Of a stretch of DNA of 64,000 nucleotides, positions 8,850 to 57,348 are shown one piece after another. The stretch lies in the sequence record LC788708.1. One strand, 5' to 3'. Under the pieces are notes generated by a model. That model was not told the DNA's origin. It did not search any database and saw nothing but the letters and a program-made list of their open reading frames with translations. A program made the position numbers and the translations under genes. Position 1 is the stretch's first letter, and every line of letters starts with the position of its first letter. The DNA is from Escherichia coli phage AZ21.

Positions 8850-8854
8850 AATTT

Positions 8855-9140: not shown

Positions 9141-9148
9141 GAGACTAT

Positions 9149-9334: not shown

Positions 9335-9674
9335 GATGGATATTTTTACTACTCCGGCAATAAACCTTTTAGGTGTTGGCTTGTTCCAAGCTACGGTGTA
9401 TCGTACTGATGATTCTACTGATGTGGTAACGTTCATCGTACCTGAGTTCTTCCTAGAAAAGTTCTTTGAAGAGTTTGAGCAGTTCCGTGAAGAACACAAT
9501 GCTCATTCCGATATGGAAGATCTAGCAGCTATGTTCCCTGCGGTTTACGGCTATATCTTTGAAGGTAATGGCCTAGATCTTAATAAATCTGAACTCGTTG
9601 AACTTAACTGGGGCATCAATTTTGAAGTTGGCTCTCCATTCCCTCGATATTTCCAGGGTTTAGAGATTCGCTAA
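9321..9674 (+). CDS. hypothetical acidic protein
   Basis: 117 aa ORF overlapping stop of upstream gene. Confidence 0.45.
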   Translation: MSEVKMDIFTTPAINLLGVGLFQATVYRTDDSTDVVTFIVPEFFLEKFFEEFEQFREEHNAHSDMEDLAAMFPAVYGYIFEGNGLDLNKSELVELNWGINFEVGSPFPRYFQGLEIR

Positions 9675-9682
9675 GATTACAT

Positions 9683-9759
9683 GGGGGTGTAATCGAATTG
9701 GCATAGGTACTGGACTTAAAATTCAGGTTTTGTGGGTTCGAATCCCACCACCCCTACCA
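9683..9759 (+). tRNA. tRNA, anticodon read as UAA (Leu-type) on short-variable-arm scaffold
   Basis: Acceptor GGGGGTG/CACCCCT, anticodon stem CTGGA/TTCAG with loop CTTAAAA, T-arm GTGGG-TTCGAAT-CCCAC, CCA; isotype uncertain. Confidence 0.6.
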
Positions 9760-9774
9760 AATTAAGGAAATAAA

Positions 9775-9897
9775 ATGAAAGCTATTAAGAAAGCACTGCG
9801 TAAATTTATGTATTGTCGTTTTCATAGCATCAAGGCTTCAACTAATGGTACTACTTACGATCGCTATGATCCTAAGTTTGGCTTACATTCTAAATAA
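9775..9897 (+). CDS. small hypothetical protein (40 aa)
   Basis: Short ORF with RBS AAGGAAATAAAATG right after tRNA. Confidence 0.3.
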   Translation: MKAIKKALRKFMYCRFHSIKASTNGTTYDRYDPKFGLHSK

Positions 9898-9910
9898 CTG
9901 GAGAAAACAA

Positions 9911-10117
9911 ATGGCTAATCCTGAAATTACGGCACAACGCTTTATGCTGAAAGGAATTATTGCTGAAGCAGGCATGACAGAAGAAGTTGCAGATTTTCAA
10001 AAGCAATTCCTCAATATTCTCACTCAAGCCAAAGAGCTAGGAGAGAAAGAACATGGCGCGGCTATTATGGCAATCACATTGGTTGGGCTTGATCTGGCTG
10101 AAGAATCAGGAGTTTAA
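9911..10117 (+). CDS. hypothetical protein
   Basis: 68 aa from ATG with RBS GGAGAAAACAAATG; in-frame upstream extension lacks RBS. Confidence 0.4.
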   Translation: MANPEITAQRFMLKGIIAEAGMTEEVADFQKQFLNILTQAKELGEKEHGAAIMAITLVGLDLAEESGV

Positions 10118-10206
10118 CTCCTCCAAGCAGAAATTTTAAAAATGTACTTGCTTTTTGCTTAAGATTTCTGCTATAATAGTTATATAAGTTGATGAGAGGA
10201 ATCAGA

Positions 10207-10482
10207 ATGTTAAAACGTTTTGCAGCAACTGGTATTGAAAGCTCAGTATGTAAATCCTGGGGTGGTTGGGAAGGTGAGATCGAGTGGCTTCAGTTCTACA
10301 ATGTAGAACTTCTTCCAGAGATCAAAGCTCAATGTATTGAGGCTGGTATGGCTCCTGATGCTACGGCTGATGTTGAAATCAGCATGAATAAGCTAGAGGG
10401 TCGAGTAGTCACTGTTACTGATGAAGGTGAAGAGGTATTCGAACTTCCATTCACTTTGAAAGTCACTCCTTCATTTGATTAA
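10207..10482 (+). CDS. hypothetical protein
   Basis: 92 aa; promoter and RBS GAGAGGAATCAGAATG. Confidence 0.45.
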   Translation: MLKRFAATGIESSVCKSWGGWEGEIEWLQFYNVELLPEIKAQCIEAGMAPDATADVEISMNKLEGRVVTVTDEGEEVFELPFTLKVTPSFD

Positions 10483-10518
10483 CTGATACAGCACTGAGCA
10501 AGTTCTTTAAAATTTGAC

Positions 10519-10547
10519 TTGCTCAGTGCCTTAAAACTTGATATAAT
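10519..10547 (+). promoter_or_regulatory. promoter upstream of tRNA-Tyr
   Basis: TTGCTC-17-TATAAT. Confidence 0.55.
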
Positions 10548-10612
10548 ATTTATCTAATTTGGAAACATATTTAAAAGTGTTTAAATGAGAATTTTTGAAT
10601 ACTTCTAAATAT

Positions 10613-10700
10613 GGGCGTTTATTCCGTAAGTGGTAGCGGAGGGGATTGTAAATCCCTGGTCATTGCGACTCGAGTGGTTCGACTCCATTAACGCCCACCA
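10613..10700 (+). tRNA. tRNA-Tyr (anticodon GUA), type II
   Basis: Acceptor GGGCGTT/AACGCCC, anticodon stem GGGGA/TCCCT with loop TTGTAAA, long variable arm, T-loop TTCGACT, CCA. Confidence 0.7.
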
Positions 10701-10717
10701 AATTAAAGGTAAAGGAT

Positions 10718-10909
10718 ATGTATATTGATCGGATAATTCAAGAAGCTGCAAATAGGGGTATTATACAGTTGGGTTCACCCGCTGATATAAATAAAGATCT
10801 AATATTAGAAAGCCTCACATTTGGTACAGCTAACTTTGGTCGCGATAGTAATCGTCGATATAGCTTGAAGTTATCTGCACTATCTTTTATCAAGTATAAC
10901 AAATTATAG
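10718..10909 (+). CDS. hypothetical protein
   Basis: 63 aa ORF between two tRNAs, RBS AAAGGTAAAGGATATG. Confidence 0.3.
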   Translation: MYIDRIIQEAANRGIIQLGSPADINKDLILESLTFGTANFGRDSNRRYSLKLSALSFIKYNKL

Positions 10910-10983
10910 TTAGTTGGCAGAGTGGTTATGCACCTCCTTCATACGGAGCGACTACAGTGGTTCAACTCCACTACTAACTACCA
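10908..10983 (+). tRNA. tRNA-Met/Ile-type (anticodon CAU)
   Basis: Acceptor AGTTAGT/ACTAACT, anticodon stem CTCC/GGAG with loop TTCATAC, T-arm AGTGG-TTCAACT-CCACT, CCA. Confidence 0.65.
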
Positions 10984-11166
10984 AAGATAAGATCAGGCCT
11001 TTGTGCCAGATCTCTGTGTTTATTAAACTGAATGGGACTATCAATCCACAAGCCGGACTACGAGCGATTATCGGGTATTCACTTAATAAACAGCCTGCCT
11101 CCCAGTTTTTATCTTGCTTCTGGGTTAACAAAAAGCTGAGCCAAATTCTAACATCAGGGAGATCTA

Positions 11167-11535
11167 ATGAAAGCATATCAAAGTCTTAAGTCTGGCGTAA
11201 TTAACCTTGTTCATGATAACCAGATCATTCAGCTATATTCTAAAGATGGTGAACTTAAACAAAAGGTTCTAGTTGAAGATCTAGAGGGTATCACACCTCA
11301 TTTTGACCCTGAGGCCTTCCGCATTGTAGATGTAGAAGTGGTTCCTCAAGTCGAGGGTGGTCAGCACCTAAATGTCAATGTGTTAAGCCGTGATCAGCTT
11401 TTGGATGCACAGAAACATCCTGAAAAATATCCTCAGTTGACCATCCGTGTCTCTGGCTATGCTGTTCGATTTAACGCATTGACGCGTGAACAACAGAACG
11501 ACGTTATTAGTCGTACATTTACTCAGGCGATATAA
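11167..11535 (+). CDS. grcA: GrcA-like autonomous glycyl-radical cofactor protein
   Basis: 122 aa; C-terminus [12 protein letters not shown]...[36 protein letters not shown] closely matches the E. coli GrcA/PFL glycyl-radical domain incl. RVSGY glycine site. Confidence 0.8.
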
Positions 11536-26649: not shown

Positions 26650-27539
26650 TGGGATTTTATAGTAATAGAAAACCAAAAGGTGTAACTGGTAAATTCGCAG
26701 TTGAAGAAAGACCTTTTCCACCGGTCGATGTAGAGAAACTACGTGAACTTCTAGAAATGCTAGAAGGTTGCCATGAACGTTGTTATTCTGAACTCTCTTT
26801 AAATGAGAAACGTGTTGTTGAGATGTTCTGTATTCGTTCAGCTAGAACAGCTAAAGGTACTTCTCCAAAAGATGAAGTAAAAGAGTACAGAGTTCTAGTG
26901 ATGCATGCTTGGGCACAACGTTTTGCAGTTCATTCGCTTCAGGAATGGTTTAATCTTCCAGCCTATAAAGATTTTCATGTTTACGAAGATGAGGTTATGA
27001 ATTATAATGAGTTGTATGGTTTGTCCTTCAAAAAGACAGGCTCACCGATGCATGATGCACTCAATTCATTCCCTGATCATTACCTTCCAGTTCGTGAATA
27101 TAGAGATCGTGAAGGAAATAAACCCTGCTTCACTATTTGGAATAAGTCTAAGACGATATCTGATCTAGATAATTATTGGTTTCGCACAAAAGAAGGATTC
27201 CTAGGAACAGAACCTTTACCTAAGGATCTCAAACCTATCCTTCCGCCTGCGAAACCTAAACATGAAGTAACGATTGCTATTAATAGAATAATTCTAGGAG
27301 CAGATGATCTTACTAAACAAATCGCCGCAGTTATCGCAGTTCTGTTTGACGGTACAAATTCTTCTGCACGTTATGAGAAGCTAACGGATAACAAATTGCA
27401 GATACCTAACGAGTTGTATGAGAGTTCGTGCAAGATCTATGATAACTTTAGTAAAGTAGATTACCCCGTGAGATCCATTAAAGAACTCATGGAGTATGCG
27501 GAGATGGGGATGAAAGGAAATCTCATGTTCGATGAATAA
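26649..27539 (+). CDS. hypothetical protein
   Basis: 296 aa ORF, last gene before the repeat-rich gap. Confidence 0.5.
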   Translation: MGFYSNRKPKGVTGKFAVEERPFPPVDVEKLRELLEMLEGCHERCYSELSLNEKRVVEMFCIRSARTAKGTSPKDEVKEYRVLVMHAWAQRFAVHSLQEWFNLPAYKDFHVYEDEVMNYNELYGLSFKKTGSPMHDALNSFPDHYLPVREYRDREGNKPCFTIWNKSKTISDLDNYWFRTKEGFLGTEPLPKDLKPILPPAKPKHEVTIAINRIILGADDLTKQIAAVIAVLFDGTNSSARYEKLTDNKLQIPNELYESSCKIYDNFSKVDYPVRSIKELMEYAEMGMKGNLMFDE

Positions 27540-27546
27540 ACTCTAC

Positions 27547-27575
27547 TTGACGTTATGATTTCTGCATGTTATAAT
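27547..27575 (+). promoter_or_regulatory. sigma70 promoter firing into the non-coding repeat region
   Basis: TTGACG-17-TATAAT with no ORF downstream for about 1.8 kb. Confidence 0.55.
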
Positions 27576-27903
27576 AACTCTATGAAATAACATAGAATAA
27601 AGAGATCCACCCGGATACGGATGGTGGATGGGAAACTTCTATTTCCCCCGTAGCTTGTCGGAGGGCTAGGGAAATCTTAAGAAGTTTTGTACCATCTCAC
27701 GCAATTCGTATCCCAGGGGTGGAGCATCTCTTCCAATCTTTGGGGATCTTATACTTAAATTAAAGGTAAAACTTTTGGTCACATAATTTACATTCAAGAT
27801 GATACACTGGTTGCCGCCATTCTTCCTAGGATGGCACAACACTTTCTTCTAGACTCCTAAGTTTCTAGGAATACTAACTCTAGAGTTTACACTAAACTTT
27901 GAA

Positions 27904-28641
27904 TCGGATTCGCACATGCTCTAGGGCAGTTTTTCATCTACTATAAATATCCTAGGCCGGTTTTCCTATACAGGGCGGTTATGGGGAGGGCGGTTATTTC
28001 TAGACAATAAAATTTACTCTTGTCAGTCCAGAAATTACTGTCGGATTTGCACATTGTGTTTCTAGAAATTTATGGTCGGATTTGCACAATTGCCTAAGTT
28101 TTTAGGAACATATAATCTCCTGAAAATGGCAGCATTATTTCGGGCCGAAGGCCCATGATTGCCTGAGTTTTTTTAGAGACACAGAAATTTTCACTTGTCA
28201 AGCTATTTTGCCCCATTTTGCTAATAAAATTTTACTTTATCTCCCCTAATCTCAAATTAACCCAAATCTTCTCAACTCTTCTCCAAAATCCCCGCAAATC
28301 AGGTGCTCCGCACCAAACATGCGCCCCTCCCGTAGTTCCCCCAAGTTTCTCTCGATCTCTCAACTTCTCCCCAAACTCATACAATCACACACCCTCCAAT
28401 CGAAGTCACAAAAATCTTGTCGGATTCGCACAAATAAACCCATGTCGGATTTGCACATATTCTAGTTAATTCCACAGGATTGATGCGCAGCATCGGATTG
28501 CTGGAGTTTTTGGGAGAATTCATTGTCGGATTCGCACACTATAAAAATTTTTCGGGTCGGATTTGCACACTACCAAAAATTGTCGGATTCGCACATACAC
28601 GCCCACGCGTAATCCATGGGGGCAAATGTCGGATTTGCACA
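27904..28641 (+). repeat. array of 9 direct copies of GTCGGAT(T/C)(T/C)GCACA
   Basis: Copies at about 27904, 28040, 28075, 28419, 28444, 28525, 28557, 28582, 28628, same orientation, irregular spacing, non-coding. Confidence 0.8.
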
Positions 28642-28647
28642 AAAGCG

Positions 28648-28663
28648 CAGGGCAATTGCCCTG
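28648..28663. repeat. perfect 16-bp palindrome CAGGGCAATTGCCCTG
   Basis: Exact reverse-complement symmetry. Confidence 0.8.
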
Positions 28664-28705
28664 CTTGCCTGAATGCGAATGATAATGAGAATCATTTGCA
28701 TTTAA

Positions 28706-28858
28706 AAAGCGGAATGAGAATGATAATAATTCGCATTTAAGAATGGAAGTGAGAATTATTCAGGAAGTGAAACGATTCTCATTTAAAAAGTGAAACGATT
28801 CTCATTTAGAAAGTGAAACGCGAATGATAATGATTCGTATTTAAGAATGGAAGTGAGA
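28706..28858 (+). repeat. two about 42-bp direct repeats flanking a 23-bp tandem repeat
   Basis: ATGATAAT.ATTCG.ATTTAAGAATGGAAGTGAGAA at about 28706 and 28817; GTGAAACGATTCTCATTTA(A/G)AAA x2.5 at 28767-28822. Confidence 0.75.
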
Positions 28859-28874
28859 AACACTATTATTTAAG

Positions 28875-28964
28875 TTATCCACAGACTTATCAACAGCACG
28901 ATTTGACTTGACAGAATCCTAGCCATTTTGAGGCGTTATCAACAGACTTATCAACAGCTTATCC
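28875..28964. promoter_or_regulatory. DnaA-box cluster
   Basis: TTATCCACA at 28875-28883 plus three TTATCAACA variants within 90 bp. Confidence 0.55.
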
Positions 28965-28984
28965 TACTGTATAAATATACAGTA
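28965..28984. promoter_or_regulatory. LexA (SOS) box, near-consensus
   Basis: TACTGTATAAATATACAGTA, i.e. CTGT-N8(AT-rich)-ACAG, one spacer difference from the E. coli consensus. Confidence 0.6.
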
Positions 28985-29177
28985 TTCCTATGCAGTGAAT
29001 AATTCTAATATACAGCTAAAACGCTCTCAAACGCATTCTAACGCGTTTAATTTTGGTGGGGATACTAAAACAAGGGCAAAATTGGAGGAGGCTTGAAAAT
29101 TAGTTAGCTCGCTAATGATCACACACGGCGACACGTAACACCCTAACCATTAGCAGGCTAACCATCGCGGGCGTGGT

Positions 29178-29200
29178 CAAATGAGAATGATTCTCATTTG
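29178..29200. repeat. perfect inverted repeat CAAATGAGAAT-G-ATTCTCATTTG
   Basis: 11-bp arms around a single central base. Confidence 0.8.
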
Positions 29201-29350
29201 TGGATTGGGGGCGCTTCCTGATAGTTGCGCCCCGTGATTATTATAGTAGGGGGCAACCGTTACGCTTTGCCCACTCCCGCCACTCATCTTGGTGCCTAGA
29301 CTTGCGACGGCGTACTAAAAACCGCTTGTACCAGTGATTAAACCATCGTT

Positions 29351-29554
29351 TCATAAATCCTCCTCCGGTAGTCGATGCGTGATCTTTTCCTCCTCCCCAT
29401 AGGAATCCACCAAATACTGATAATAACCATCGTGATCATAAATCACTTTATCATATTCCCCACGCTCGACCGCTTGCCGATTTTCCAACGTATCAGGCAC
29501 AAAGAAAGTATCAACGGTAACAGTAGTTTTAGTTACAACAATTTTATCACTCAT
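29351..29554 (-). CDS. hypothetical small acidic protein
   Basis: 67 aa; last gene of tightly packed minus-strand operon; start overlaps upstream tiny ORF. Confidence 0.45.
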   Translation of the reverse strand: MSDKIVVTKTTVTVDTFFVPDTLENRQAVERGEYDKVIYDHDGYYQYLVDSYGEEEKITHRLPEEDL

Positions 29555-29680
29555 AATGCCATCGCCCCTAGAATGAGAATGATTATCAATATCATTGTGA
29601 AGCCATTACCAAATCGTAAACGCTGGGAATGTTTCCCAGCGGTATTATTAGACTTATGGCTTTGTGTTTTTCGCCACCAG

Positions 29681-29881
29681 CTATTCACGGTAGACGCTCC
29701 ATCCGTCTAGCTTCCATTCTTCCCCCTTGCGAATATTGAAAAACCAATCATTAAAATTGTAACCATCTTCTGACATGATCACGCCGTTTTCTTTCATGTA
29801 CAAAAATTCATCACTAGTAAAATATTGATTACTAACTTTAAAACCTTGTTTCATTTTTTCTAGTGCTTCATCTTTAGTCAT
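29681..29881 (-). CDS. hypothetical small acidic protein
   Basis: 66 aa; ATGA-type overlap with upstream gene. Confidence 0.45.
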   Translation of the reverse strand: MTKDEALEKMKQGFKVSNQYFTSDEFLYMKENGVIMSEDGYNFNDWFFNIRKGEEWKLDGWSVYRE

Positions 29882-30222
29882 TGCGCCACCTTTCGAAACG
29901 CTGTTTCAATACTATCCGCAGTGGATTGAATATATGCGCCTTTGAGTATCAGCCGCTCGGTGCATATCTTGCGAAAAATATTAATAAAATCGTCCTCATT
30001 TTCTGCGATTAATGCCTCACCCATAACCTGAACGTCGCAAGATGCAAAGGTCAAAAATTGAAACGCTAGTTCACGGGCAACGACCGCATTGATTTTATAA
30101 TGCGCCTTGCCTTCATAGATATTAATAACGCCCTTATAAGCTGGCGAAAGCTGATTTAAGTAGTTTGCTAATAATGCCGGACGGCAATTAGCAACAAAAC
30201 GATTGCCCTCATAAATAACCAT
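29878..30222 (-). CDS. hypothetical protein
   Basis: 114 aa, minus-strand operon member. Confidence 0.5.
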   Translation of the reverse strand: MVIYEGNRFVANCRPALLANYLNQLSPAYKGVINIYEGKAHYKINAVVARELAFQFLTFASCDVQVMGEALIAENEDDFINIFRKICTERLILKGAYIQSTADSIETAFRKVAQ

Positions 30223-30349
30223 TTGATAGTCTCCCGATTAGATAGCCAGATAATAACATAAAGATCCCCAATAAAAGAGGATCATTCTTAAATAAGGTGG
30301 CGGTAAAACCGCCAACCATTGCAAGGAGAATAACAATAATGCTTTTCAT
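30209..30349 (-). CDS. small membrane protein (46 aa)
   Basis: MKSIIVILLAMVGGFTATLF hydrophobic ORF; ATG overlaps stop of upstream gene (ATGA) and its stop overlaps next start. Confidence 0.3.
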   Translation of the reverse strand: MKSIIVILLAMVGGFTATLFKNDPLLLGIFMLLSGYLIGRLSNGYL

Positions 30350-30558
30350 AGTACCCCACGAAACGCAGCGTAAAAGGTGGCAAAGTGTTTAACTGTTTCA
30401 GCAATCACGTTGCCGCGCTTATCAAATTTCTTTTCTGTAACACGAAAGGCATTTTTATTACGTGCTACATATTCGATTTTACAATCTTCCCGCTCGAACG
30501 TGTTAACATCCACCAGCTTAAAGCCTTTCGAACGTGCAAGAGAAACGTTGCGGATCAT
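30346..30558 (-). CDS. hypothetical basic protein
   Basis: 70 aa ORF in minus operon. Confidence 0.45.
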   Translation of the reverse strand: MIRNVSLARSKGFKLVDVNTFEREDCKIEYVARNKNAFRVTEKKFDKRGNVIAETVKHFATFYAAFRGVL

Positions 30559-30560
30559 TT

Positions 30561-30743
30561 TTATTCCCCTTTACTAGTCATGCAGCCCAGCAGATAAGAA
30601 AATACAGCGATGCCAGCACCAATAGTAACCATTGGTTTTATATTTACTAAACCGCAATAGGAATCCTGAATACCATAAGCGGTGGCGAAAAGAGTCAAAA
30701 TAGCGCCCAAGATACCCGCTAAAATAGCTCGAAAAATAACCAT
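30561..30743 (-). CDS. small membrane protein
   Basis: 60 aa with two hydrophobic helices; preceded by GGGGCG-loop-CGCCCC hairpin. Confidence 0.45.
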   Translation of the reverse strand: MVIFRAILAGILGAILTLFATAYGIQDSYCGLVNIKPMVTIGAGIAVFSYLLGCMTSKGE

Positions 30744-30792
30744 TTGTAATACTCCTCTAGTTAGTGGGGCGAAAGTAACGCCCCGTTATTAA

Positions 30793-31023
30793 TTACATTA
30801 AAATAATTTTTGCCGCTTGTTTTTTGGTACAGTGTTCCGCTTTCAGGGTGTCCAGCAAAAAGCCCGCCGTTTGCTGATCGATTTTATCGGCATTATATAG
30901 TTCTTGGATGGTGTTATAAGTTTTAGCAATGCCGTATTCTTGTACCATTTCTTGAATAATCCAGCGATTTGATACCCAGCCTTTACCAGTGAAAAGAGCG
31001 TCAGAAGAAGAGTAAGCAACCAT
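30793..31023 (-). CDS. hypothetical protein
   Basis: 76 aa from ATG with RBS GGAGGCTTAAAATG (minus strand); longer track ORF lacks RBS. Confidence 0.45.
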   Translation of the reverse strand: MVAYSSSDALFTGKGWVSNRWIIQEMVQEYGIAKTYNTIQELYNADKIDQQTAGFLLDTLKAEHCTKKQAAKIILM

Positions 31024-31086
31024 TTTAAGCCTCCAAATTTTTGGGAAAATTTTCAACCGTCCTCAAACGGTGTAAAGGCATTATAA

Positions 31087-31115
31087 CAAAAAAGGCCGCC
31101 ATAAAAGGCGACCTT
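31087..31115 (-). terminator. rho-independent terminator (minus strand)
   Basis: AGGTCGCC-loop-GGCGGCCT hairpin followed by TTTTTT on minus strand, right after the stop of 31130-31624. Confidence 0.5.
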
Positions 31116-31129
31116 TACAAAACTTTACA

Positions 31130-31624
31130 TTAAACTACTTGTAAGGATTCAATATTGAAACATCGTTTCAGTTCGTCATGCAAAACGGCATATTCATCCC
31201 ATCGGGTACTATCAGGAATATAAACAAGCTGTTTTAATCGGTTTGCATATATTACCGCTTTGTTATCAATTATCTCGACGCCACCATATTTAATAATTAA
31301 TTTCATGACGGAATTAATAGGATCGCCGCCGTTTACATATGCGCCGGATTTACTTAATTGATAATGATAAAGGCTTGCATATACGTTTTCATTTTCATAC
31401 CATTCGCCAGTCTCTTCGTCTTCATAGCCATCGCTACCAAAACGAGAAGCATTATCAACAGCCATTTCATGAGCAAAAGCGTCCAGATCCGTACCAGCAG
31501 GAACAAAATATTCCTCGGTATTCCCTTCCCCGCAATAGCCAGTATGACAATCGACTAAAATGATCATATCATGTTTAGCCTTGCTCACTTCCCCTAGCGA
31601 GAAGCCGTATTTTTCTTCTAACAT
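31130..31624 (-). CDS. hypothetical acidic protein
   Basis: 164 aa from ATG with RBS GGAGAC; acidic run DGYEDEETGEWYENENVY. Confidence 0.5.
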   Translation of the reverse strand: MLEEKYGFSLGEVSKAKHDMIILVDCHTGYCGEGNTEEYFVPAGTDLDAFAHEMAVDNASRFGSDGYEDEETGEWYENENVYASLYHYQLSKSGAYVNGGDPINSVMKLIIKYGGVEIIDNKAVIYANRLKQLVYIPDSTRWDEYAVLHDELKRCFNIESLQVV

Positions 31625-31688
31625 AATTAGTCTCCTATTAATTAACAAGGAAATAGTAAAGCGGGGAAATAATCCCCGCTAGATATTA

Positions 31689-31922
31689 TTACTCGTTTTC
31701 GGTGTTAGTGGTAAAAGTAGAGATATCGATACCTTTTACCATTTCATCGATCATCTCAGCGATGTTAAAACTTTGCACCATTTCTAACATTGCCGCTTCC
31801 ATAGCCGCCCCTGCTACCGCTTTCGCTTTCTGATTAGTCGGGGCGTACTGGTCAACCGCTACACTCAGCAGGTTAGCGATCACTACACGACCAATCGGCG
31901 TATCAATATAGCCTTTGATCAT
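31689..31922 (-). CDS. hypothetical protein, possibly C-terminal part of a frameshifted gene
   Basis: 77 aa ORF overlapping end of 31903-32694 by 20 nt; reachable by +1 shift at an A7 run. Confidence 0.4.
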   Translation of the reverse strand: MIKGYIDTPIGRVVIANLLSVAVDQYAPTNQKAKAVAGAAMEAAMLEMVQSFNIAEMIDEMVKGIDISTFTTNTENE

Positions 31923-32694
31923 AAACGGTGCTTTTTTTAGCCGCTACTTTCGTGATTTGAGTTAGTGCAATTTTACCAGCTTCCAGTTTTGCAGCGTTTA
32001 CAACAGCGGATTTATTAGCGGCAACGATATTAGCGATCTTGGTCATGGTATTTTTTCCTTTGTTTTCAGTAGTTTGAGTATTAACGCTTTGAGTGTTAGA
32101 GCTTACAACCTGTTTTTCAATATTGTCAACTGGTTTTAGTGTAAATCCAGCATTTGCAACGTTTGATTCATTCCCATACTCTAAATAATCACTAGGGATC
32201 AACATGTTGCCACTAGCGCGTTCAAAACATAACACGCCAGTTGTAGAAATTACATTACTATCAGCACTTTTGTAATTAGCTGATAGTTCACGCCAAATGC
32301 TAGTTAATAACGATCCGACACTATCAGTCCTGATATTACTTACTTTTGTTGCTGTTACTTGCTCTTTTTCTTGCACGTTATATAATCGCGCAATGTAACC
32401 ACTATTAGATTCACTATAACCAACAATGATAAAATCAATATCTCTTCCACGTTGATTGCGGAAAATGTGATAATCACGGTTGAAAATTACTAGCGCCCTT
32501 TTCTGGTCTAGTAATTGTGTGAAATCTTCAACTGAATAATGAGTACCCTCATCGTCTAAAATTCTATCATGAATCTTTTCGATAATAGTAGCGGTATGCT
32601 GTACGCTTGCCGCGCTACTACCCTCTAACAGATTGCGCAAACTGCCTTTAATAATAGTGGCGTTTGCTGGTACTGCAATTCTTACAGTAGACAT
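31903..32694 (-). CDS. hypothetical protein (first gene of minus-strand operon)
   Basis: 263 aa ORF, Ser/Thr/Asn-rich middle, Ala/Lys-rich C-terminus; ends just after A7 homopolymer. Confidence 0.5.
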   Translation of the reverse strand: MSTVRIAVPANATIIKGSLRNLLEGSSAASVQHTATIIEKIHDRILDDEGTHYSVEDFTQLLDQKRALVIFNRDYHIFRNQRGRDIDFIIVGYSESNSGYIARLYNVQEKEQVTATKVSNIRTDSVGSLLTSIWRELSANYKSADSNVISTTGVLCFERASGNMLIPSDYLEYGNESNVANAGFTLKPVDNIEKQVVSSNTQSVNTQTTENKGKNTMTKIANIVAANKSAVVNAAKLEAGKIALTQITKVAAKKSTVYDQRLY

Positions 32695-32960
32695 TTTATT
32701 TTGTCTCCCTCGTTAATCGGTGAGTGAATGATAAGGGTAATTTTCTAGCATAGGCAAATATTATTTTACTTTTTTATTTTCCTTGCCTAGCGTCTAATTT
32801 TATGCTAACCGCGCAGCGGTGCAATAAAGAGCAAACCACGGCGAAGCCACCAGCCCGACGCATTGAGGCTTTACTTTAATATTACCTTACAGCGTTTAGC
32901 TCGTTAGAATGCGTTTTGGGCCACTTAAAATTGATTGCAGTTGTTAACACTACCTTTCTA

Positions 32961-32980
32961 CCCTGTATATTTATACAGTG
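32961..32980. promoter_or_regulatory. LexA (SOS) box
   Basis: CCCTGTATATTTATACAGTG with perfect CTGT-N8-ACAG core, about 270 bp upstream of the first minus-strand gene. Confidence 0.55.
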
Positions 32981-32988
32981 GAATAACC

Positions 32989-33397
32989 TGTGGATAAGTC
33001 TGTGCAAAAGTCCTTATATCACCGCCTATCGTGTCAAGTTATTTTGTGCTGTGGAAAACATTGTGGATAACTTAAATGATAGTGCTTCTCACTTAGGCTA
33101 ATGATTTCTTATAGTTATTATTTCTCATTAATTTATAAGTATATTATATATTATCAAATAGTTAGTTGGCTAATGAGATTTTCCGTGATTAATAGTCTGC
33201 TAATAATTCAGGTCGTTACAATCCACCAGCATGATTATCATTCTAGCAATTATTAGTCTGCTATCTTTCCGATACATACTAACAAATAAAAGTCAATTAA
33301 TTTATTTCATAAAATAAGTAGTTATCCACTGGAAAATAAAAGTCAAGTGGATAACTAGGAAAATTTCATTTTTGCTTTTGGGGATAAGTTATCAACA
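32989..33397. promoter_or_regulatory. DnaA-box cluster
   Basis: TGTGGATAA at 32989 and 33062, TTATCCAC at 33322, GTGGATAA at 33347, TTATCAACA at 33389. Confidence 0.55.
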
Positions 33398-33799
33398 AGG
33401 CTAGAATGCGCCTAAAACGCTCCAGAACGCGATGAAGTTTTTAGCCACCCCATCATAAGGGGATAGGCCGTTTATCGCTGCCACGAGCTTTTTAGATTTT
33501 GTCAAGTAGGGGAAAGCAAATATAAATGAAAAAATTACTTGCCTATTTGCTTTATTTTGTGGTATTCGCGCCCGTTTCTTTTAATTTTAGGCCGTCGCCG
33601 GACGTGGTGCGGTGAATTTTGTCTTTACGTTTCTTTACAAAAATAAGGTTGCGCCATTTTCGGGAATCCCCTATTATTTATCACGTAGGGCGGCAATGAC
33701 GAACTACACGGCGGGAAGTTTACCGCCACGCTCTTTAAAAATTGGGTACATCTTAAAGCCTATCGGCGGTAAACTTATTTATTATAAGGAATCGACGAT

Positions 33800-34012
33800 A
33801 TGAAACAAACTTTATTGATCACTGGCAAGCCTATTAAGGCACTAGATAGCAAAACAAAAAATTTGTTGACAGTAGCGCAAAGATCGGTAAAATACCGATT
33901 CACGCAGTACAAGAAAGACCGCCAGCAAGGTTTAGAAATGATCTGGCGAAACATTATGATTGACTTGAAAGAAAATCATAAAAAACTGCAAAAAAATTAT
34001 TTGACAACCTAG
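33800..34012 (+). CDS. hypothetical ORF (doubtful)
   Basis: 70 aa ORF but contains internal TTGACA-17-TAAAAT promoter-like sites; may be non-coding. Confidence 0.2.
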   Translation: MKQTLLITGKPIKALDSKTKNLLTVAQRSVKYRFTQYKKDRQQGLEMIWRNIMIDLKENHKKLQKNYLTT

Positions 34013-34233
34013 CCGATAGGTTTTAAGATGTACCCAGTTCGATAAGAGCGATAACTTGATAAAATTTGACGGTCGGTGCTTACCATAATGCGCCCCGCCC
34101 CCTAACGGGATATAGCGGCCTACGTGGAGTTCTTTAAATTGATTATAGCGGCGAGAGGATTGTTACTTATTACCTGCTAGTATTTTCTAGTAGGTAATAA
34201 GTAACAATCCATCAAATAACTGGAGTTTATATT

Positions 34234-34485
34234 ATGCAAAACGTTATTACCGCGCCTAAAATTGGTCAATCCGTCTTTATTCCTTTCGTTACTAAAACGG
34301 ATGAATTAACCGGAAAGGCCGAACGTATTAAAGGTGCGGCGCTTATGCCGTTCGATACAATCGACGCGGTATATGCTGAAAATGAACGCAGTAACAACGG
34401 CAAGCCCGTTTTTAGCGTTCGCGTTAAATCCGGCGATGTTGTAAAGGTTGTTCAACGCAACGAAAAATGGGAAGCTGTGTTGTAA
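34234..34485 (+). CDS. pre-early hypothetical protein
   Basis: 83 aa, RBS AACTGGAGTTTATATTATG; followed by perfect 9-bp hairpin. Confidence 0.5.
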   Translation: MQNVITAPKIGQSVFIPFVTKTDELTGKAERIKGAALMPFDTIDAVYAENERSNNGKPVFSVRVKSGDVVKVVQRNEKWEAVL

Positions 34486-34583
34486 TTTAGTGTTAACTTT
34501 ATATCCCCCTTATTTCAGGGGGATATAACGATTAACATTAAGTTAATCTAATCCCTTAAATTAAACTAATAGGAGTTTTTACC

Positions 34584-34991
34584 ATGACTAACGCAAAAAC
34601 CGCAAAATTCGCATGGAATGAAGAAAACACTCAGAAAGCTGTTACCATGTACCAGCAGTTAATCAACGAAAACGGTTTAGATTTTGCAAATAGCGACGGC
34701 CTGAAAGAGATTGCAAAAGCAGTAGGCGCGGCCTCCCCCGTATCCGTTCGGTCAAAATTGACCAGTGCAAAAGCCTATCAAAAAAGCGATAAGCCGCGTA
34801 AAGTTGGCGGCGGTAGCTCTGTGCGTAAAGCTCACTATGTGCGAGTAATTGCAAAACACGCTATCGATTCCGGTATTATCAAAGACGCCGATGATCTGGC
34901 AAGCCTTGAAAGTGCTAAACTGGAAACGCTGGACGCGGTGGCGCAACTGTTAGGCGTTGCCGATGAAGTAAAACAAGCCGTAGGTGAATAA
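34584..34991 (+). CDS. pre-early hypothetical protein
   Basis: 135 aa, RBS AGGAG; followed by GCCCCCT-loop-AGGGGGC hairpin. Confidence 0.5.
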   Translation: MTNAKTAKFAWNEENTQKAVTMYQQLINENGLDFANSDGLKEIAKAVGAASPVSVRSKLTSAKAYQKSDKPRKVGGGSSVRKAHYVRVIAKHAIDSGIIKDADDLASLESAKLETLDAVAQLLGVADEVKQAVGE

Positions 34992-35081
34992 TAGTTATAC
35001 CTTGCCCCCTTCTAGTGAGGGGGCACTAATATAACTGTTTAGCGATAGTTATTTTCTTCCCTTAAATCAGGAGTTTTAAAA

Positions 35082-35279
35082 ATGGTTTTCTTCCCTACTG
35101 AATCTTTGATTCTAGGCTTGTTTATTATGGCGGCCTCATTATTGTTCGCTTATTTTCAGAATGATTTAGATTCGTATTATTTTAAACGTAAATCTAAATT
35201 AGCAAAACGTTTGGGCTTGCTTTGTTTTATCGCTGCCGTTGCCTGTGGTGTTAGTTCGAGTCTAGTACCATTAAATTAA
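35082..35279 (+). CDS. small membrane protein
   Basis: 65 aa with two hydrophobic helices; RBS AGGAG. Confidence 0.4.
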   Translation: MVFFPTESLILGLFIMAASLLFAYFQNDLDSYYFKRKSKLAKRLGLLCFIAAVACGVSSSLVPLN

Positions 35280-35366
35280 TGTTGCAAATTATAACGCCTA
35301 TTATTCGAGGCGTTATATTTGGCAATATTGCCATTATTAACCTAATCCCTTTAATGGAGTTTTATT

Positions 35367-37037
35367 ATGATTATTTCCGCAGAAAAACAAACCGTTATCC
35401 TGAAAATGGCCGCTGATTTCAATTTCTACGGTAAACGCCTGCGCGCCACTAAACTGGAGGTCTGCGACGATATTTCAAAAGCGGTCTACGATACAACGAA
35501 ACACTCCACCGCTATCTGCGACTGGCTGGAAGCAAATAAACCAGCGAAACCAAAAGCGGCAAAAGTAGCAAAAGCCATTAAAAACGGTGAGCGCCCCGAA
35601 GCGGCTGGGATTGTTTCTAGTACCGTGGAGCAGTGGGAAGTAAAACAAGGTAAACGCTTTATTATTACATCGATTCAGAATAATACTTTCCCGCATAAAA
35701 ACTTTTTAGCCTCACTGGAGCAATTTGCTAAATATATCGGGGCTGATTTGCTCGTTTCTAAGTATATTTATAATAAAAACGGTTTTCAAAATGGGGAAGG
35801 TGCTGACGGAATCAAATATGATTCCGCGTTTGATAAATATATTTGCAGCAAAAACGTGTTTTTGAATAACCGCCGCTTTGCTTTCATGGCTGAAATTAAT
35901 GTTTTGCCTACCGCAGATTATCCGCTTTCTGGATTCGCAGAAACTGCAACGGCTTTAAATATTGAAGGTCTGGCAATTGGTCACGCTAAAATTACCGCTG
36001 AAAGCGTACCAGCTTTAAAAGGTGAAGTAGTGCGCCGTATGTACTCAACCGGAACGGCAACGCTCAAAAACTACATTCAGCAGAAAGCAGGACAAAAGGC
36101 CGAGGCGCTGCATAACTTCGGTGCGCTTATTGTTGAGTTCGACGAGGACGGGGAATTTTTTGTACGCCAGCTTGAAACGATGGACGAAAGCGGGGTATTT
36201 TATGATCTGAATGTGTGTGCTACTCCTGCCGGATGCTATGAAACATCGGGGCATGTTTTAGGCTTGCAGTATGGCGATATTCACGCCGAAAAATTAGATG
36301 AGGAGTGCGCCGCCGCGTCATGGGGGCATGGTGATACTTATGGGCTAGTAGATATTCTTAAACCAAAATATCAGTTTGTGCATGACGTGCATGATTTTAC
36401 ATCGCGCAATCATCATAACCGCGCATCGGGTGTATTCCTAGCAAAACAGTACGCCGCCGGACGTGATAAGGTTATTGATGATCTTATCGATACGGGGCGC
36501 GTGCTGGAATCAATGGAGCGTGATTTTTCTCAAACAATCATTGTTGAATCGAATCACGATTTGGCGTTATCCCGTTGGCTTGATGATCGTAATGCTAACA
36601 TCAAAGACGATCCAGCAAACGCAGAACTGTATCACCGCCTGAATGCTGCAATTTACGAGGCAATCGGTGAACATGACGAAACGTTCAACGTGCTAGATTA
36701 TGCGCTGCGCAAGGTTGCAGGTTGTGAGTTTAACGCCATTTTCCTGACCACTGACCAATCTTTCAAGATTGCAGGCATTGAATGCGGCGTACACGGTCAC
36801 AACGGCATTAATGGCAGTCGTGGCAATCCCAAACAATTTAAGAAATTGGGCAAGTTAAACACTGGTCATACTCATACGGCAAGCATTTACGGCGGGGTAT
36901 ATACCGCTGGCGTAGCTGGTAGTCTGGATATGGGTTACAACGTTGGCGCGTCAAGCTGGACGCAAACTCATTTAATTACCTATGCAAACGGTCAGCGCAC
37001 TTTGATTGACTTTAAGAACGGTAAATTTTTTGCGTAA
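35367..37037 (+). CDS. A1: A1-like pre-early protein, calcineurin-like metallophosphatase (Mre11/SbcD-type nuclease fold)
   Basis: 556 aa (size of the T5 A1 product as I recall it); GDIH, ESNHD, HGHNG, GHTHT metallophosphatase motifs in order; sits with dmp-like gene. Confidence 0.7.
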   Translation: MIISAEKQTVILKMAADFNFYGKRLRATKLEVCDDISKAVYDTTKHSTAICDWLEANKPAKPKAAKVAKAIKNGERPEAAGIVSSTVEQWEVKQGKRFIITSIQNNTFPHKNFLASLEQFAKYIGADLLVSKYIYNKNGFQNGEGADGIKYDSAFDKYICSKNVFLNNRRFAFMAEINVLPTADYPLSGFAETATALNIEGLAIGHAKITAESVPALKGEVVRRMYSTGTATLKNYIQQKAGQKAEALHNFGALIVEFDEDGEFFVRQLETMDESGVFYDLNVCATPAGCYETSGHVLGLQYGDIHAEKLDEECAAASWGHGDTYGLVDILKPKYQFVHDVHDFTSRNHHNRASGVFLAKQYAAGRDKVIDDLIDTGRVLESMERDFSQTIIVESNHDLALSRWLDDRNANIKDDPANAELYHRLNAAIYEAIGEHDETFNVLDYALRKVAGCEFNAIFLTTDQSFKIAGIECGVHGHNGINGSRGNPKQFKKLGKLNTGHTHTASIYGGVYTAGVAGSLDMGYNVGASSWTQTHLITYANGQRTLIDFKNGKFFA

Positions 37038-37093
37038 TTAAATTATTTCCCTAGCGGCTTGAAATACAGCCGCTATTACAGGAGCTAAATTAA

Positions 37094-37372
37094 ATGGCTA
37101 TTAAAATTAATCTTCCCAATATTAAAAACACCGCTGATATATGGTCGATTGATACTATATTGCGTGGCACTGTATACCGTAATTTAAAAGATAATAATTG
37201 TTATATTTATCAAAATGAATTAAACGGCCATATTTACATAATCGAGTCCGATGGTTTTTGTTCTTTTGAGACTGATTATGAAGCGCAAGATCATATACAG
37301 GCAAATGATATTCCTGACGTATGGAAAGAAACAAACCTTGCTTTTGTTGTAAGTCTTGAAGCTAACAAATAA
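37094..37372 (+). CDS. pre-early hypothetical protein
   Basis: 92 aa ORF downstream of A1-like gene, RBS AGGAGCTAAATTAAATG. Confidence 0.45.
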   Translation: MAIKINLPNIKNTADIWSIDTILRGTVYRNLKDNNCYIYQNELNGHIYIIESDGFCSFETDYEAQDHIQANDIPDVWKETNLAFVVSLEANK

Positions 37373-37410
37373 ATTAAATATCTTATTAAATTAATTGGAG
37401 TTTTACAAAT

Positions 37411-37803
37411 ATGAAAAAGCAAAATATTCCATTCGATCGCGCTCAGTCTTCTATTGTTCTGGTTTATTCTAATGGTGAGCGTTACCACGTCGAGGCGGGG
37501 CACGTTATTGATGAATTATTAGATTTCAATGACGCTTTACAGGTTACTACCTTTGCCTACACGCAAGGCCGCGCAAGTAGTTACATTAAGGCCGCAGGCG
37601 TTTATGTTGACACGGTGAAACAAGAAACGATTATCATCGACGCAGTAAAATCCGGTCTAGCCTTTGCAGTTGTCGCGCCTTGCCCCTCTTGTCTTGATGA
37701 TCAGCTAACGAGTGCGAAAGTATACACCTGCGCGGGCATTCGTTCCCATGTATCAGGAGAGGATATTAGTTTTATCGCTGATGCGTTGGCTTATGGTCTT
37801 TAA
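37411..37803 (+). CDS. pre-early hypothetical protein (possible A2 equivalent)
   Basis: 130 aa ORF downstream of A1-like gene; assignment by position only. Confidence 0.4.
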   Translation: MKKQNIPFDRAQSSIVLVYSNGERYHVEAGHVIDELLDFNDALQVTTFAYTQGRASSYIKAAGVYVDTVKQETIIIDAVKSGLAFAVVAPCPSCLDDQLTSAKVYTCAGIRSHVSGEDISFIADALAYGL

Positions 37804-37883
37804 TAGTTGATTTATTATTGCCCGCTGATAGATAGCGGGCAATGCTGGATAAACTACATCCCTTTAATGGAGAACGTAACAAA

Positions 37884-38618
37884 ATGAATCAAGTTAAAAC
37901 GAATATTTCCCGTAACTTCCCGCATATTTCCCGCGTCATGATCTGGGATCTTGATGGCACTATCGTTAATTCATTCCATCGTGTAGCGCCTTGCTTTGAT
38001 AGTGAGGGTAATCTAGATTTAAATAAGTATAAGAATGAGGCTTGCAAACATGATTTAATAATGCAGGATACTTTATTGCCTTTGGTGGAATATATGCGCC
38101 AATGCATGAATGACGCAAATACTTTAAACATTATTTGTACCGCTCGATTAATGAGCAAATCGGATTATTATTATTTGCGCAAACAAGGCTTGCGAGGGCG
38201 TGGGGATAGCAATATCCGCGTGTTTTCCCGCGACACGCTGCATAAATATTTTGAAGCTGATAAGGTTAGCGAGATATACCACAGTAAAGACGCAGTTTAT
38301 AAATCGTATTACTTTGAATTATTTAAACAGCTATATCCGAACGCTGATTTCACAATGATTGATGATCATAAAGGTGTATTATCAGCGGCGGCGTCATACG
38401 GATTTAAAACGCTAGACGCGCAAGCCGTTAACGATATTCTATCAATCGGCGTGGCATTGATAGGCGGAACCTTTATTGATGAATCTCTCGATGATGATAA
38501 TGATTATCAGTTCCTAGCCGATCGATTGAAATTATGTTGGGAAAGTATGACCGAAGAAGAACGCGCAGAATATAGTTGCAGCCCGCAACAATATATTGAG
38601 AAATTAAAAGTTGCGTAA
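37884..38618 (+). CDS. dmp: HAD-family 5'-deoxyribonucleotidase (dmp-like)
   Basis: VMIWDLDGTIVNS (HAD motif I DxDGT); RBS GGAGAACGTAACAAAATG; pre-early context. Confidence 0.65.
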   Translation: MNQVKTNISRNFPHISRVMIWDLDGTIVNSFHRVAPCFDSEGNLDLNKYKNEACKHDLIMQDTLLPLVEYMRQCMNDANTLNIICTARLMSKSDYYYLRKQGLRGRGDSNIRVFSRDTLHKYFEADKVSEIYHSKDAVYKSYYFELFKQLYPNADFTMIDDHKGVLSAAASYGFKTLDAQAVNDILSIGVALIGGTFIDESLDDDNDYQFLADRLKLCWESMTEEERAEYSCSPQQYIEKLKVA

Positions 38619-38782
38619 TAATTAAAGTTGAAATAGTTTCATCCTGCAATTAAAATGGTTGCGGGATGAAACAATTACCCTGCTAATAGTAACGGGGGTG
38701 GCGGTTAGCAGACTAAGTATTCTCCCCCAACCCACTGGACACACCTCCATGTGTAATCCTATGAAATTTGGCAAAAGTCAAA

Positions 38783-44815: not shown

Positions 44816-46032
44816 TGGGTTTTAAAAGCTGGATTACTGAAAAGCTAAATCCGGGTCAACGTATTATAAGAGACATGGAACCAGTTAGTCATCGCACTAA
44901 CCGTAAGCCTTTTACCACTGGACAAGCCTACAGTAAAATTGAGATTCTCAATAGAACTGCTAATATGGTTATAGATAGTGCGGCGGAGTGTTCTTATACT
45001 GTCGGAGATAAATATAATATTGTCACGTATGCCAATGGCATCAAGGCAAAGACTCTAGACACTCTCTTAAATGTACGACCTAATCCATTCATGGATATAA
45101 GCACATTCCGTAGACTTGTAGTCACTGACCTACTTTTTGAAGGTTGTGCATACATCTATTGGGATGGCACAGCACTTTACCATGTCCCTGCTGCACTAAT
45201 GCAAGTAGAGGCAGATGCCAATAAGTTTATCAAAAAATTTATATTTAATAACCAGATAGACTATCGCGTAGATGAGATTATCTTTATAAAGGATAACAGT
45301 TACGTGTGTGGCACAAATTCTCAAATTTCTGGACAATCTCGTGTTGCTACTGTTATTGATTCTCTTGAGAAGCGTTCTAAGATGCTTAACTTTAAAGAGA
45401 AGTTCCTAGATAACGGAACCGTGATTGGTCTTATTCTTGAGACGGATGAAATCCTGAACAAGAAATTGCGTGAGCGTAAACAAGAAGAATTACAACTAGA
45501 TTATAATCCTAGTACTGGTCAGTCCTCTGTCCTGATTCTAGATGGTGGTATGAAAGCTAAACCGTACTCCCAAATATCCTCTTTTAAAGATCTAGACTTT
45601 AAGGAAGACATTGAAGGATTTAATAAATCTATCTGTCTAGCCTTTGGTGTTCCGCAAGTGCTACTTGATGGTGGTAATAATGCGAACATTAGACCAAATA
45701 TCGAACTGTTCTATTATATGACTATCATCCCTATGCTGAACAAGCTGACTAGTTCTCTTACTTTCTTTTTTGGTTATAAGATTACTCCTAATACTAAGGA
45801 AGTAGCTGCATTAACACCAGATAAAGAATCTGAGGCTAAACATTTAACCTCATTGGTTAATAATGGTATTATAACTGGTAATGAAGCTCGCTTAGAGCTG
45901 AACCTTGAACCTTTAGATGATGAGCAGATGAATAAGATTCGTATTCCTGCTAACGTTGCTGGTTCTGCAACAGGTGTATCCGGTCAAGAAGGTGGTAGAC
46001 CTCAAGGTTCCACCGAGGGAGATAAAGAATGA
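44815..46032 (+). CDS. portal protein
   Basis: 405 aa, located between terminase/HNH and prohead protease; ATGG overlap with upstream gene. Confidence 0.65.
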   Translation: MGFKSWITEKLNPGQRIIRDMEPVSHRTNRKPFTTGQAYSKIEILNRTANMVIDSAAECSYTVGDKYNIVTYANGIKAKTLDTLLNVRPNPFMDISTFRRLVVTDLLFEGCAYIYWDGTALYHVPAALMQVEADANKFIKKFIFNNQIDYRVDEIIFIKDNSYVCGTNSQISGQSRVATVIDSLEKRSKMLNFKEKFLDNGTVIGLILETDEILNKKLRERKQEELQLDYNPSTGQSSVLILDGGMKAKPYSQISSFKDLDFKEDIEGFNKSICLAFGVPQVLLDGGNNANIRPNIELFYYMTIIPMLNKLTSSLTFFFGYKITPNTKEVAALTPDKESEAKHLTSLVNNGIITGNEARLELNLEPLDDEQMNKIRIPANVAGSATGVSGQEGGRPQGSTEGDKE

Positions 46033-57326: not shown

Positions 57327-57348
57327 TTTATGGAAAAATAAAAATTTC

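Follow-up and report, generated by a model that had tools for sequence, protein, structure and literature searches.

The window analysed here, a stretch of 64,000 nucleotides (nt) from Escherichia coli phage AZ21 (LC788708.1), carries at two places a LexA-type box adjoined by predicted DnaA boxes, and these composite modules stand at both borders of a variable, dispensable block of pre-early genes that occupies the minus strand at 29351-32694 (open reading frames (ORFs), Pfam, PHROG and the annotation of phage AZ23). One box, the 20-mer CCCTGTATATTTATACAGTG at 32961-32980, has as its core CTGTATATTTATACAG (32963-32978), an exact CTGT-N8-ACAG palindrome of 16 bp with an AT-rich spacer, as is typical of SOS boxes. 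Ten nucleotides (tggaataacc, 32979-32988) separate it from TGTGGATAA (32989-32997), which on the minus strand reads TTATCCACA, a predicted DnaA box of consensus type that fits the 9-mer TT(A/T)TNCACA. The partner box is the 20-mer TACTGTATAAATATACAGTA at 28965-28984, with the core CTGTATAAATATACAG at 28967-28982. An earlier sequence-only reading of this DNA had placed the first box and its consensus DnaA neighbour at exactly these coordinates and at exactly this spacing, and had proposed that it brackets the minus-strand block together with the box at 28965, all of which is borne out; it had overlooked that the site is part of a repeat arm and is the weaker of a pair.

Both boxes form the inner ends of a 132-nt inverted repeat (28851-28982 and 32963-33094), found by repeat search, whose arms are 83% complementary. 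The annotation of T5 (AY587007) and blastn identify the copy at 32963-33094, arm B, as the T5 arrangement of inverted repeat C, spacer and inverted repeat D (IRC-spacer-IRD, 6022-6152, with the repeats themselves at 6022-6060 and 6112-6152), while the same annotation identifies the copy at 28851-28982, arm A, as IRD'-spacer-IRC' (9332-9462, repeats at 9332-9372 and 9424-9462). Arm A lies in the injection-stop (iss) region and arm B on the A2/A1 side of the block; as in the T5 repeat system, two inverted arms of ~131 bp flank a variable pre-early block inside the terminal repeat. The 20-mer at 32961-32980 is the inner end of inverted repeat D, in T5 'Repeat Region 2', and is homologous to T5 6135-6154; the 20-mer at 28965-28984 is identical in T5, where the GenBank record names its counterpart (9330-9349) 'palindrome D' and nothing more.

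The DnaA-type boxes of the arms are arranged just as regularly. In arm B, the box at 32989-32997 is paired at a distance of 3 bp with TTTTGCACA (33001-33009), and a second pair, TTTTCCACA (33050-33058) and another TTATCCACA (33062-33070), lies in the IRC part, all on the minus strand; in arm A the pairs are 28875/28887 and 28936/28948, so that each half-arm holds one 3-bp-spaced DnaA/DnaA* pair. Exact matches to TTATCCACA occur three times in the window (28875, 32989 and 33062), always inside the two arms, and the distance from each LexA-type box to its paired DnaA boxes is ~8-10 bp. The AGTAGGATAA box overlaps and is a possible place of cooperation or competition between LexA and DnaA. Davison describes eight DnaA or DnaA* boxes in the T5 repeats, paired 3 bp apart (bioRxiv 10.1101/866236), and the DnaA box beside the first LexA-type box was therefore already known.

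Relative to the T5 map the window is reversed: in a blastn comparison with T5 1-11500, T5 position 1 falls at 38741 and T5 9238-10579 at 29076-27742. Because this map places it so, we take ~28180-38741 to be a single, collapsed copy of a terminal repeat of T5 type, its boundary near 28180 being interpolated (the left terminal repeat of T5 is 1-10139). This is the first-step-transfer (FST) DNA, the part of T5 DNA that enters the cell first. In Davison's preprint (bioRxiv 10.1101/866236) IRC-spacer-IRD is assigned to Repeat Region 2 and IRD'-spacer-IRC' to 'Repeat Region 3', the presumed injection stop signal; a minor FST band of ~5.8 kb, observed in 1979, is the reason given there for regarding Region 2 as perhaps a secondary stop or a membrane-attachment site. 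On the plus strand, and identified from ORFs, PHROG and the T5 annotation, lie A2 (34584-34991), A1 (35367-37037) and dmp (37842-38618), and the block between the arms encodes a gene 011-like DUF7566 ORF and an Ung-dependent nickase like T5.015 (Pfam, PHROG). Over the 2.2 kb compared around the box, AZ23 (LC788707; Demerecviridae, Tequintavirus) is 100% identical to the window and hundreds of T5-like phages are 80-94% identical. A plasmid origin of 31900-34100 was rejected, as megablast of this segment against plasmids gave no match.

How good are the two boxes as LexA sites? The bare motif CTGT-N8-ACAG occurs three times in the window against 0.84 expected, which is not significant (3 was reached in 2 of 100 shuffles). 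With a symmetrised weight matrix made from 29 known E. coli operators, which themselves score 12.7-23.1 bits, the picture is different: 28965-28984 reaches 24.9 bits, the best score in the window and above all 29 references, and 32961-32980 reaches 21.2 bits and so is of operator quality, in support of the earlier reading as a LexA box. The third-ranked 20-mer has 15.4 bits. By the exact distribution of matrix scores, chance would produce 0.0024 sites per 64 kb with 21.2 bits or more, and 1.4e-5 with 24.9 bits or more. A heterology-type index agrees, with 0.8 for the site at 28965, ahead of every reference operator, and 4.4 for that at 32961, level with the recA and lexA operators; the similarity of the latter over the full 20-mer falls inside the range of the 29 reference operators. 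The box at 32961 is the weaker and less conserved partner, with non-consensus flanks. In T5 (111.5 kb scanned, that is, the left repeat and the whole unique region) the two homologous sites likewise stand alone, with 24.9 and 20.7 bits against 15.5 for the next.

The third-ranked 20-mer of the window, CACTGGACAAGCCTACAGTA at 44916-44935, is a weak LexA-like site that is kept in many relatives at +8.3 to +10.4 kb from the A1 start; its conservation may reflect the surrounding sequence rather than a functional site.

Relatives were collected via the A1 protein, which makes the search independent of the DNA motif, and the Demerecviridae examined include phages of Escherichia, Salmonella, Pectobacterium, Klebsiella, Proteus, Vibrio and Aeromonas. 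A strong box stands at both positions in all 29 distinct Tequintavirus/Epseptimavirus-like loci and in the My1-like loci (A1 65-67% identical): the distal one lies 4.1-8.9 kb upstream of A1, the proximal one 2.4-4.4 kb, and each adjoins DnaA-type boxes. Further carriers of the pair are a Sugarlandvirus of Klebsiella, a Novosibvirus of Proteus (A1 42%) and, with A1 at 34%, an Aeromonas phage and Vibrio phages D260 and D308. Among the distant Demerecviridae checked (A1 identity 32-42%) were further Vibrio phages, namely Chester, Brizo and VPG01; in Chester and Brizo the distal box is strong and the proximal one degraded (12.1-12.3 bits), and in VPG01 the best proximal candidate has 14.7 bits. 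The iss-side copy is strong in every case. Metagenomic contigs that bear A1 and are not T5-like have neither the LexA-type box nor clusters of DnaA boxes, and in the distant ones the alpha-proteobacterial motif GTTC-N7-GTTC and the Gram-positive motif GAAC-N4-GTTC do not occur above expectation either.

What is conserved has the pattern of LexA recognition. CTGTAT and ATACAG are constant while the four central nucleotides vary (AAAT, ATTT, ATCC, GGAT, AAAC, ATAA), and this combination of conserved half-sites and free centre extends across phages of Escherichia, Klebsiella, Proteus, Vibrio and Aeromonas; examples from distant genera are CACTGTATAAACATACAGTA, CCCTGTATATCCATACAGGG, CACTGTATGGATATACAGGG and TACTGTATATAATTACAGGG. 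The variants that do occur (CTGG, CTGTAC, CACAG) are those common among real LexA operators. Within arm B, no part varies less among 28 close relatives than the box, where 0.7-0.8 sequences deviate per column; in the flanks the figure is 2-3.5.

One could suppose that the palindromes have no protein-specific role, and that they are repeat ends for the recombination or inversion of cassettes, or secondary structure that hinders passage of the DNA. The boxes do coincide exactly with the inner termini of the 132-nt arms that flank the highly variable block, and the palindrome centre flips between AAAT and ATTT among phages, as exchange between inverted arms would lead one to expect. Yet in distant genera the arms can no longer be aligned, while CTGTAT-N4-ATACAG persists, followed ~6-20 nt further on by DnaA-type boxes, and My1-like and Vibrio phages have extra boxes with different centres. 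As hairpins the two sites are weak, with stems of 8 AT-rich pairs worth only -4.0 and -4.6 kcal/mol, on which grounds we rejected a cruciform or hairpin explanation; a search of 27000-35000 for Rfam families gave nothing beyond sub-threshold matches of microRNA (miRNA) type on palindromes. We consider a role without a specific protein very unlikely.

The composite also exists outside the T5 family. A scan of IMG/VR for CTGTAT-N4-ATACAG-N(6-16)-TGTGGATAA returned T5-like genomes and 19 metagenomic loci. Four of the 19 are divergent Demerecviridae, three (L087, L089, L118) have a weak terminase match only, and two, L101 among them, a single weak match to another T5 protein; in the other ten, no A1, A2 or other protein of T5 or of the Chester, Aeromonas or Proteus phages was found within the 1.5-15 kb examined, which is part of each contig. 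In the composite-bearing loci L087, L089, L092, L093, L094, L101, L102, L105, L108, L115, L118, L123, L124 and L126, the portion of the contig examined holds no A1, A2 or dmp gene. The boxes of the non-T5 loci score 16.5-24 bits, all but one at least 20, and have tandem DnaA boxes alongside. One group of these loci comes from contigs of about 23-46 kb; L093, a 45-kb phage and the one locus annotated, has genes for a DNA polymerase of family A, a helicase of DnaB type and a primase, and carries its LexA/DnaA composite at 10572-10609, in a non-coding region of 1.2 kb beside long repeats of TATATACTATAC type.

LexA boxes often overlap -10 elements, and the sequence-only reading had proposed that both sites here are overlapped by a possible leftward promoter of the operon, which could be repressed by LexA and modulated by DnaA. 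The hexamers TTATCC (32997-32992) and TATAAA (32975-32970, minus strand) are indeed present, 16 bp apart and overlapping both sites (32970-32997), and their arrangement is identical in T5, but they do not make a good promoter. Our sigma-70 definition called for at least 4 of 6 matches per hexamer, for a -10 with A in second and T in sixth place, and for conservation; TTATCC has 3 of 6 matches, and TATAAA lacks the conserved final T. The candidate does not appear in the consensus scan and was rejected with 2.6 bits, rank 27 of 2330 in 32650-33150 by matrix. Far better is TTGCCT-18-TATCAT on the minus strand at 32757-32728, which has the best minus-strand score (9.8 bits), is also found by the consensus scan, follows an A-rich tract and, its start being placed near 32721, leaves ~27 nt to the ATG at 32694. 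It corresponds to the pre-early promoter T5P4 of the T5 annotation (6331-6420), directly upstream of gene 011. A promoter upstream of this gene, P11, has been validated by primer extension in ordinary infection (PMC7472727; bioRxiv 10.64898/2026.04.02.716235).

The box lies ~210-245 bp upstream of this P11/T5P4 equivalent, and therefore beyond any position of classical LexA repression. P11 transcripts are, moreover, abundant in ordinary, non-SOS infection (PMC7472727), and the mirror copy, at 28967, would direct antisense transcription into the operon from its 3' end. Because the validated promoter is elsewhere and the overlapping candidate is weak, we do not place the box as a classical operator of the block, and we give the leftward-promoter model very little weight.

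Who, then, binds the palindrome? Of its 20 positions, 18-20 agree with the LexA consensus of the host, and this in phages whose hosts belong to three bacterial orders with the same LexA specificity; such a match across hosts favours a host factor as the binder. The presence of the composite in contigs that have no A1 or A2 in the DNA examined points the same way, to host factors rather than a T5-specific binder. The box is, in our judgement, quite probably a bona fide LexA-binding site.

The best explanation of these observations, on which we would place about even weight, is that the composites constitute a landing module for LexA and DnaA on FST DNA, one that would be architectural and not a promoter operator. 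FST DNA would enter an uninduced cell, where LexA dimers and DnaA would occupy the composite sites, and host nucleoprotein complexes would then form at both borders of the accessory pre-early block. These complexes might hold or organise the FST DNA where entry mainly stops, perhaps at the secondary stop too, and would not serve as a classical operator on the block promoter, more than 200 bp away; alternatively, they might act as a boundary that keeps transcription out of the array of DnaA boxes. The near-perfect consensus of the iss-side box fits constant occupancy rather than graded SOS induction. Taken on its own, an architectural role of the box in place of promoter repression is a tentative proposition, somewhere between rather doubtful and evenly balanced.

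Several points weigh against the landing module. We infer occupancy of the boxes by LexA from their sequence, and the weight matrix that grades them was built from 29 operators. We know of no architectural role of LexA, nor of any interaction between LexA and DnaA or the membrane. T5 plates on recA hosts, and therefore LexA cleavage is not required for infection. Furthermore, the copy in arm B has lost the critical C of CTGT in some lineages (CCTTGTAT in the Tequintaviruses L015, L018 and L019; CTATGTAT in Chester and Brizo), and this copy is therefore dispensable there.

A further difficulty is that in most Tequintavirus relatives, though not in T5, a rightward promoter candidate lies over the arm B box, so that a regulatory role is possible. 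In the window this is TTAACA-16-TATATT on the plus strand (32944-32971), with 9.1 bits and 10 of 12 consensus positions, and the box could be the operator of an SOS-inducible promoter (TTAACA at 32944-32949, TATATT at 32966-32971) that reads through the DnaA boxes toward hdi, A2 and A1. TTAACA is present in most Tequintavirus arm B sequences, but this -35 element is absent in T5, in three further loci (L004, L022, L034) and in all distant genera, and arm A has no equivalent. In the T5 record (AY587007) no annotated promoter overlaps repeat D, and the rightward genes already have strong promoters within an hdi-like ORF. We attach hardly any credence to an operator of this kind.

Weightier is the possibility that the palindrome is the site of a phage protein, either an A2 dimer or, as a nuclease target, A1/A2 freeing the stalled DNA, its likeness to a LexA box being incidental or mimicry. 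Second-step transfer requires A2, which forms a DNA-binding dimer and interacts with A1; cleavage at a palindrome in this region has also been proposed (bioRxiv 10.1101/866236). The A2 of the window matches PHROG 1725, 'DNA binding protein'. A segment resembling a helix-turn-helix (S51, R56, K58, L59) is invariant from E. coli phages to those of Vibrio and Aeromonas, in parallel to the palindrome, and such family-wide conservation of a putative recognition helix means that A2 could be the true ligand, which likewise counts against LexA. Against a phage protein, agreement with the LexA consensus at 18-20 of 20 positions in phages of different hosts would be a very improbable coincidence, the composite occurs in contigs without an A2 or A1 homologue in the 4-15 kb examined, and the sites of A2 could equally be many other conserved repeats of the region. 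A2 is not similar to LexA or, by sequence, to any solved structure: we rejected it as a LexA homologue, as BLASTP against E. coli LexA and phmmer against PDB sequences gave nothing, and Pfam gave a sub-threshold EcoEI_R_C match only. We regard a phage protein as the ligand as rather unlikely.

The element itself is already known as repeat D or palindrome D of T5, and so are its DnaA boxes; the box is identical or nearly so, and the same 3-bp-spaced DnaA pairs are present. The T5 inverted repeats reportedly go back to Heusterspreute et al. 1987. What appears to be new in the searchable literature is the reading as a LexA operator, the conservation throughout the family and the finding of the composite in further phage groups. 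In the Davison preprint (bioRxiv 10.1101/866236), LexA, SOS and the box sequence have no occurrence. None of the three is found in three later texts either, namely a BF23 paper of 2023, a PNAS paper of 2026 and a 2026 preprint on the pre-early genes of T5, in which the region is described in terms of repeats, palindromes and DnaA boxes. A literature search linking LexA to T5, T5-like phages, pre-early genes or the terminal repeat gave nothing relevant, though older papers may hold an earlier mention.

Comparison with known systems brings out what is unusual. The SOS boxes of E. coli (recA, lexA, sulA, umuDC, recN; consensus TACTGTATATATATACAGTA) have the same 16-bp CTGT-N8-ACAG structure with an AT-rich centre, and the scores and index values of the phage boxes are within or better than the range of verified operators. 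Unlike those SOS boxes, the phage site, where LexA binding is predicted, overlaps no conserved promoter and is in a non-coding repeat of an obligately lytic phage. LexA operators are exploited by mobile elements in the colicin operons, CTXphi, tum of coliphage 186 and, together with gp7, GIL01. Like these, the phage would carry a site for host LexA that couples it to the SOS repressor of its host. In those elements, however, LexA sits on a promoter and governs a switch between lysis and lysogeny or the production of a toxin, whereas the phage here is virulent and its site is promoter-distal, paired with DnaA boxes and duplicated as an inverted repeat. The control region of uvrB, where P2 has a LexA box and P3 a DnaA box (as reportedly described by van den Berg et al. 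1985), likewise joins the two kinds of site within a short distance; it is chromosomal and promoter-associated, its sites are single, and it has neither an inverted-repeat partner nor a role in DNA entry. Clusters of DnaA boxes like that of oriC have several consensus or near-consensus boxes in a fixed arrangement, as do the phage arms, but oriC itself includes no LexA box. The replication origins of T5 are near the centre of its genome (bioRxiv 10.1101/866236).

Why the entry of T5 DNA halts after 8% has been a question since the 1960s, and in the literature of 2023-2026 experimental studies of the repeat region are still described as lacking (2023 BF23 paper, 2026 PNAS paper). That the most conserved palindrome of this region reads as a consensus LexA operator beside DnaA boxes, from E. 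coli phages to those of Vibrio and Aeromonas, turns a catalogue of repeats into a concrete hypothesis that names a host factor. If LexA binds, T5-like phages would be an unusual case of strictly virulent phages that keep a site for the SOS repressor away from a promoter; if it does not, the conserved palindrome would be a prime candidate for the target of A2 or of A1/A2. More generally, the first-entering non-coding DNA of the T5 family and of some unrelated lytic phages might be a landing pad for abundant host proteins that bind DNA, namely LexA, DnaA and possibly Fur. The host complex formed there would be a working part of the stop and hold in two-step injection, or a sensor of host state that gates second-step transfer, and LexA would have a non-transcriptional, structural role in the genome entry of a virulent phage. 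This is a speculation that we consider unlikely to hold.

Other repeats surround the arms. Short repeats of GCGTTTTAG / GCGTTAGAATGCG type, spaced by ~10 nt, are found at 29000-29050, 32890-32920 and 33394-33430; they are the inverted repeats B and B' of T5, lie on the inner side of both LexA-type boxes and have recognisable counterparts in Klebsiella, Vibrio and Aeromonas phages. A direct repeat, TGTCGGATT(T/C)GCACA, which is the 'direct repeat D' of T5, is present in at least eight copies at ~27900-28641; they straddle the inferred end of the terminal repeat near 28180, and no host-factor motif was recognised in them. The T5 'Repeat Region 1' (33306-33397) has DnaA-like inverted pairs, with TTATCCACT at 33322 (plus strand), 33346 and 33379 (both minus) and TTATCAACA at 33389 (plus); it is capable of forming a hairpin, and in Rfam it gave a sub-threshold match of miRNA type only. 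A long, near-perfect palindrome, ttgttacttattacctgctagta...tagtaggtaataagtaacaa at 34150-34217, just upstream of a DUF7177 ORF (34234-34485), gave in Rfam only spurious sub-threshold miRNA matches.

Motifs resembling the 7-1-7 Fur box (TGATAATNATTATCA, with at most 3 mismatches) occur 21 times in the window, where 9.6 would be expected, and none of 100 shuffles reached 21. Nine lie in the iss repeats (28680-29594) beside the LexA and DnaA boxes, among them TGAGAATGATTATCA at 29574 and, as a perfect palindrome, AATGAGAATGATTCTCATT at 29180-29198; a perfect Fur-box consensus is present at 38495-38509, inside the dmp ORF. The Fur-like element AATGAGAATGATTCTCA also follows the LexA/DnaA composite in the unrelated metagenomic phages L105 and L123. 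Elements of sigma-54 type (-24/-12, TGGCAC-N5-TTGCT) occur at a distance of 10-50 nt from the LexA-type box in three phages, namely D308 and Chester of Vibrio and the metagenomic one of 45 kb (L065 at ~10969-10986, L063 at ~3817-3834, L093 at 10502-10517), and have no counterpart at the homologous place in the window.

Two strong plus-strand promoter candidates, TTGACA-16-TAAAAT (33866-33893) and TTGACA-17-TAAGAT (~34000-34030), are situated in or at the end of the hdi-like ORF (33800-34012) and fit the promoters PH22 and PD/E20 that have been reported to overlap hdi. A candidate sequence for PD/E20 maps to 57348-57381 rather than to the pre-early region, and was set aside.

Within the block, DUF7566 (336 positions) is split over two neighbouring minus-strand ORFs, one of 263 aa at 31903-32694 (positions 1-257) and one of 77 aa at 31689-31922 (positions 260-336); T5 has the same split (ORF011/ORF012), and a split gene or a frameshift is possible. 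Gene 011 has been reported to be toxic and hard to clone. A minus-strand ORF of 66 aa (29681-29881) has a weak, sub-threshold Pfam match to a Tad2-like protein of Thoeris anti-defence (E = 0.005), and one of 70 aa (30346-30558, also minus) matches the PHROG of the T5.015 Ung-dependent nickase with E = 4e-50.

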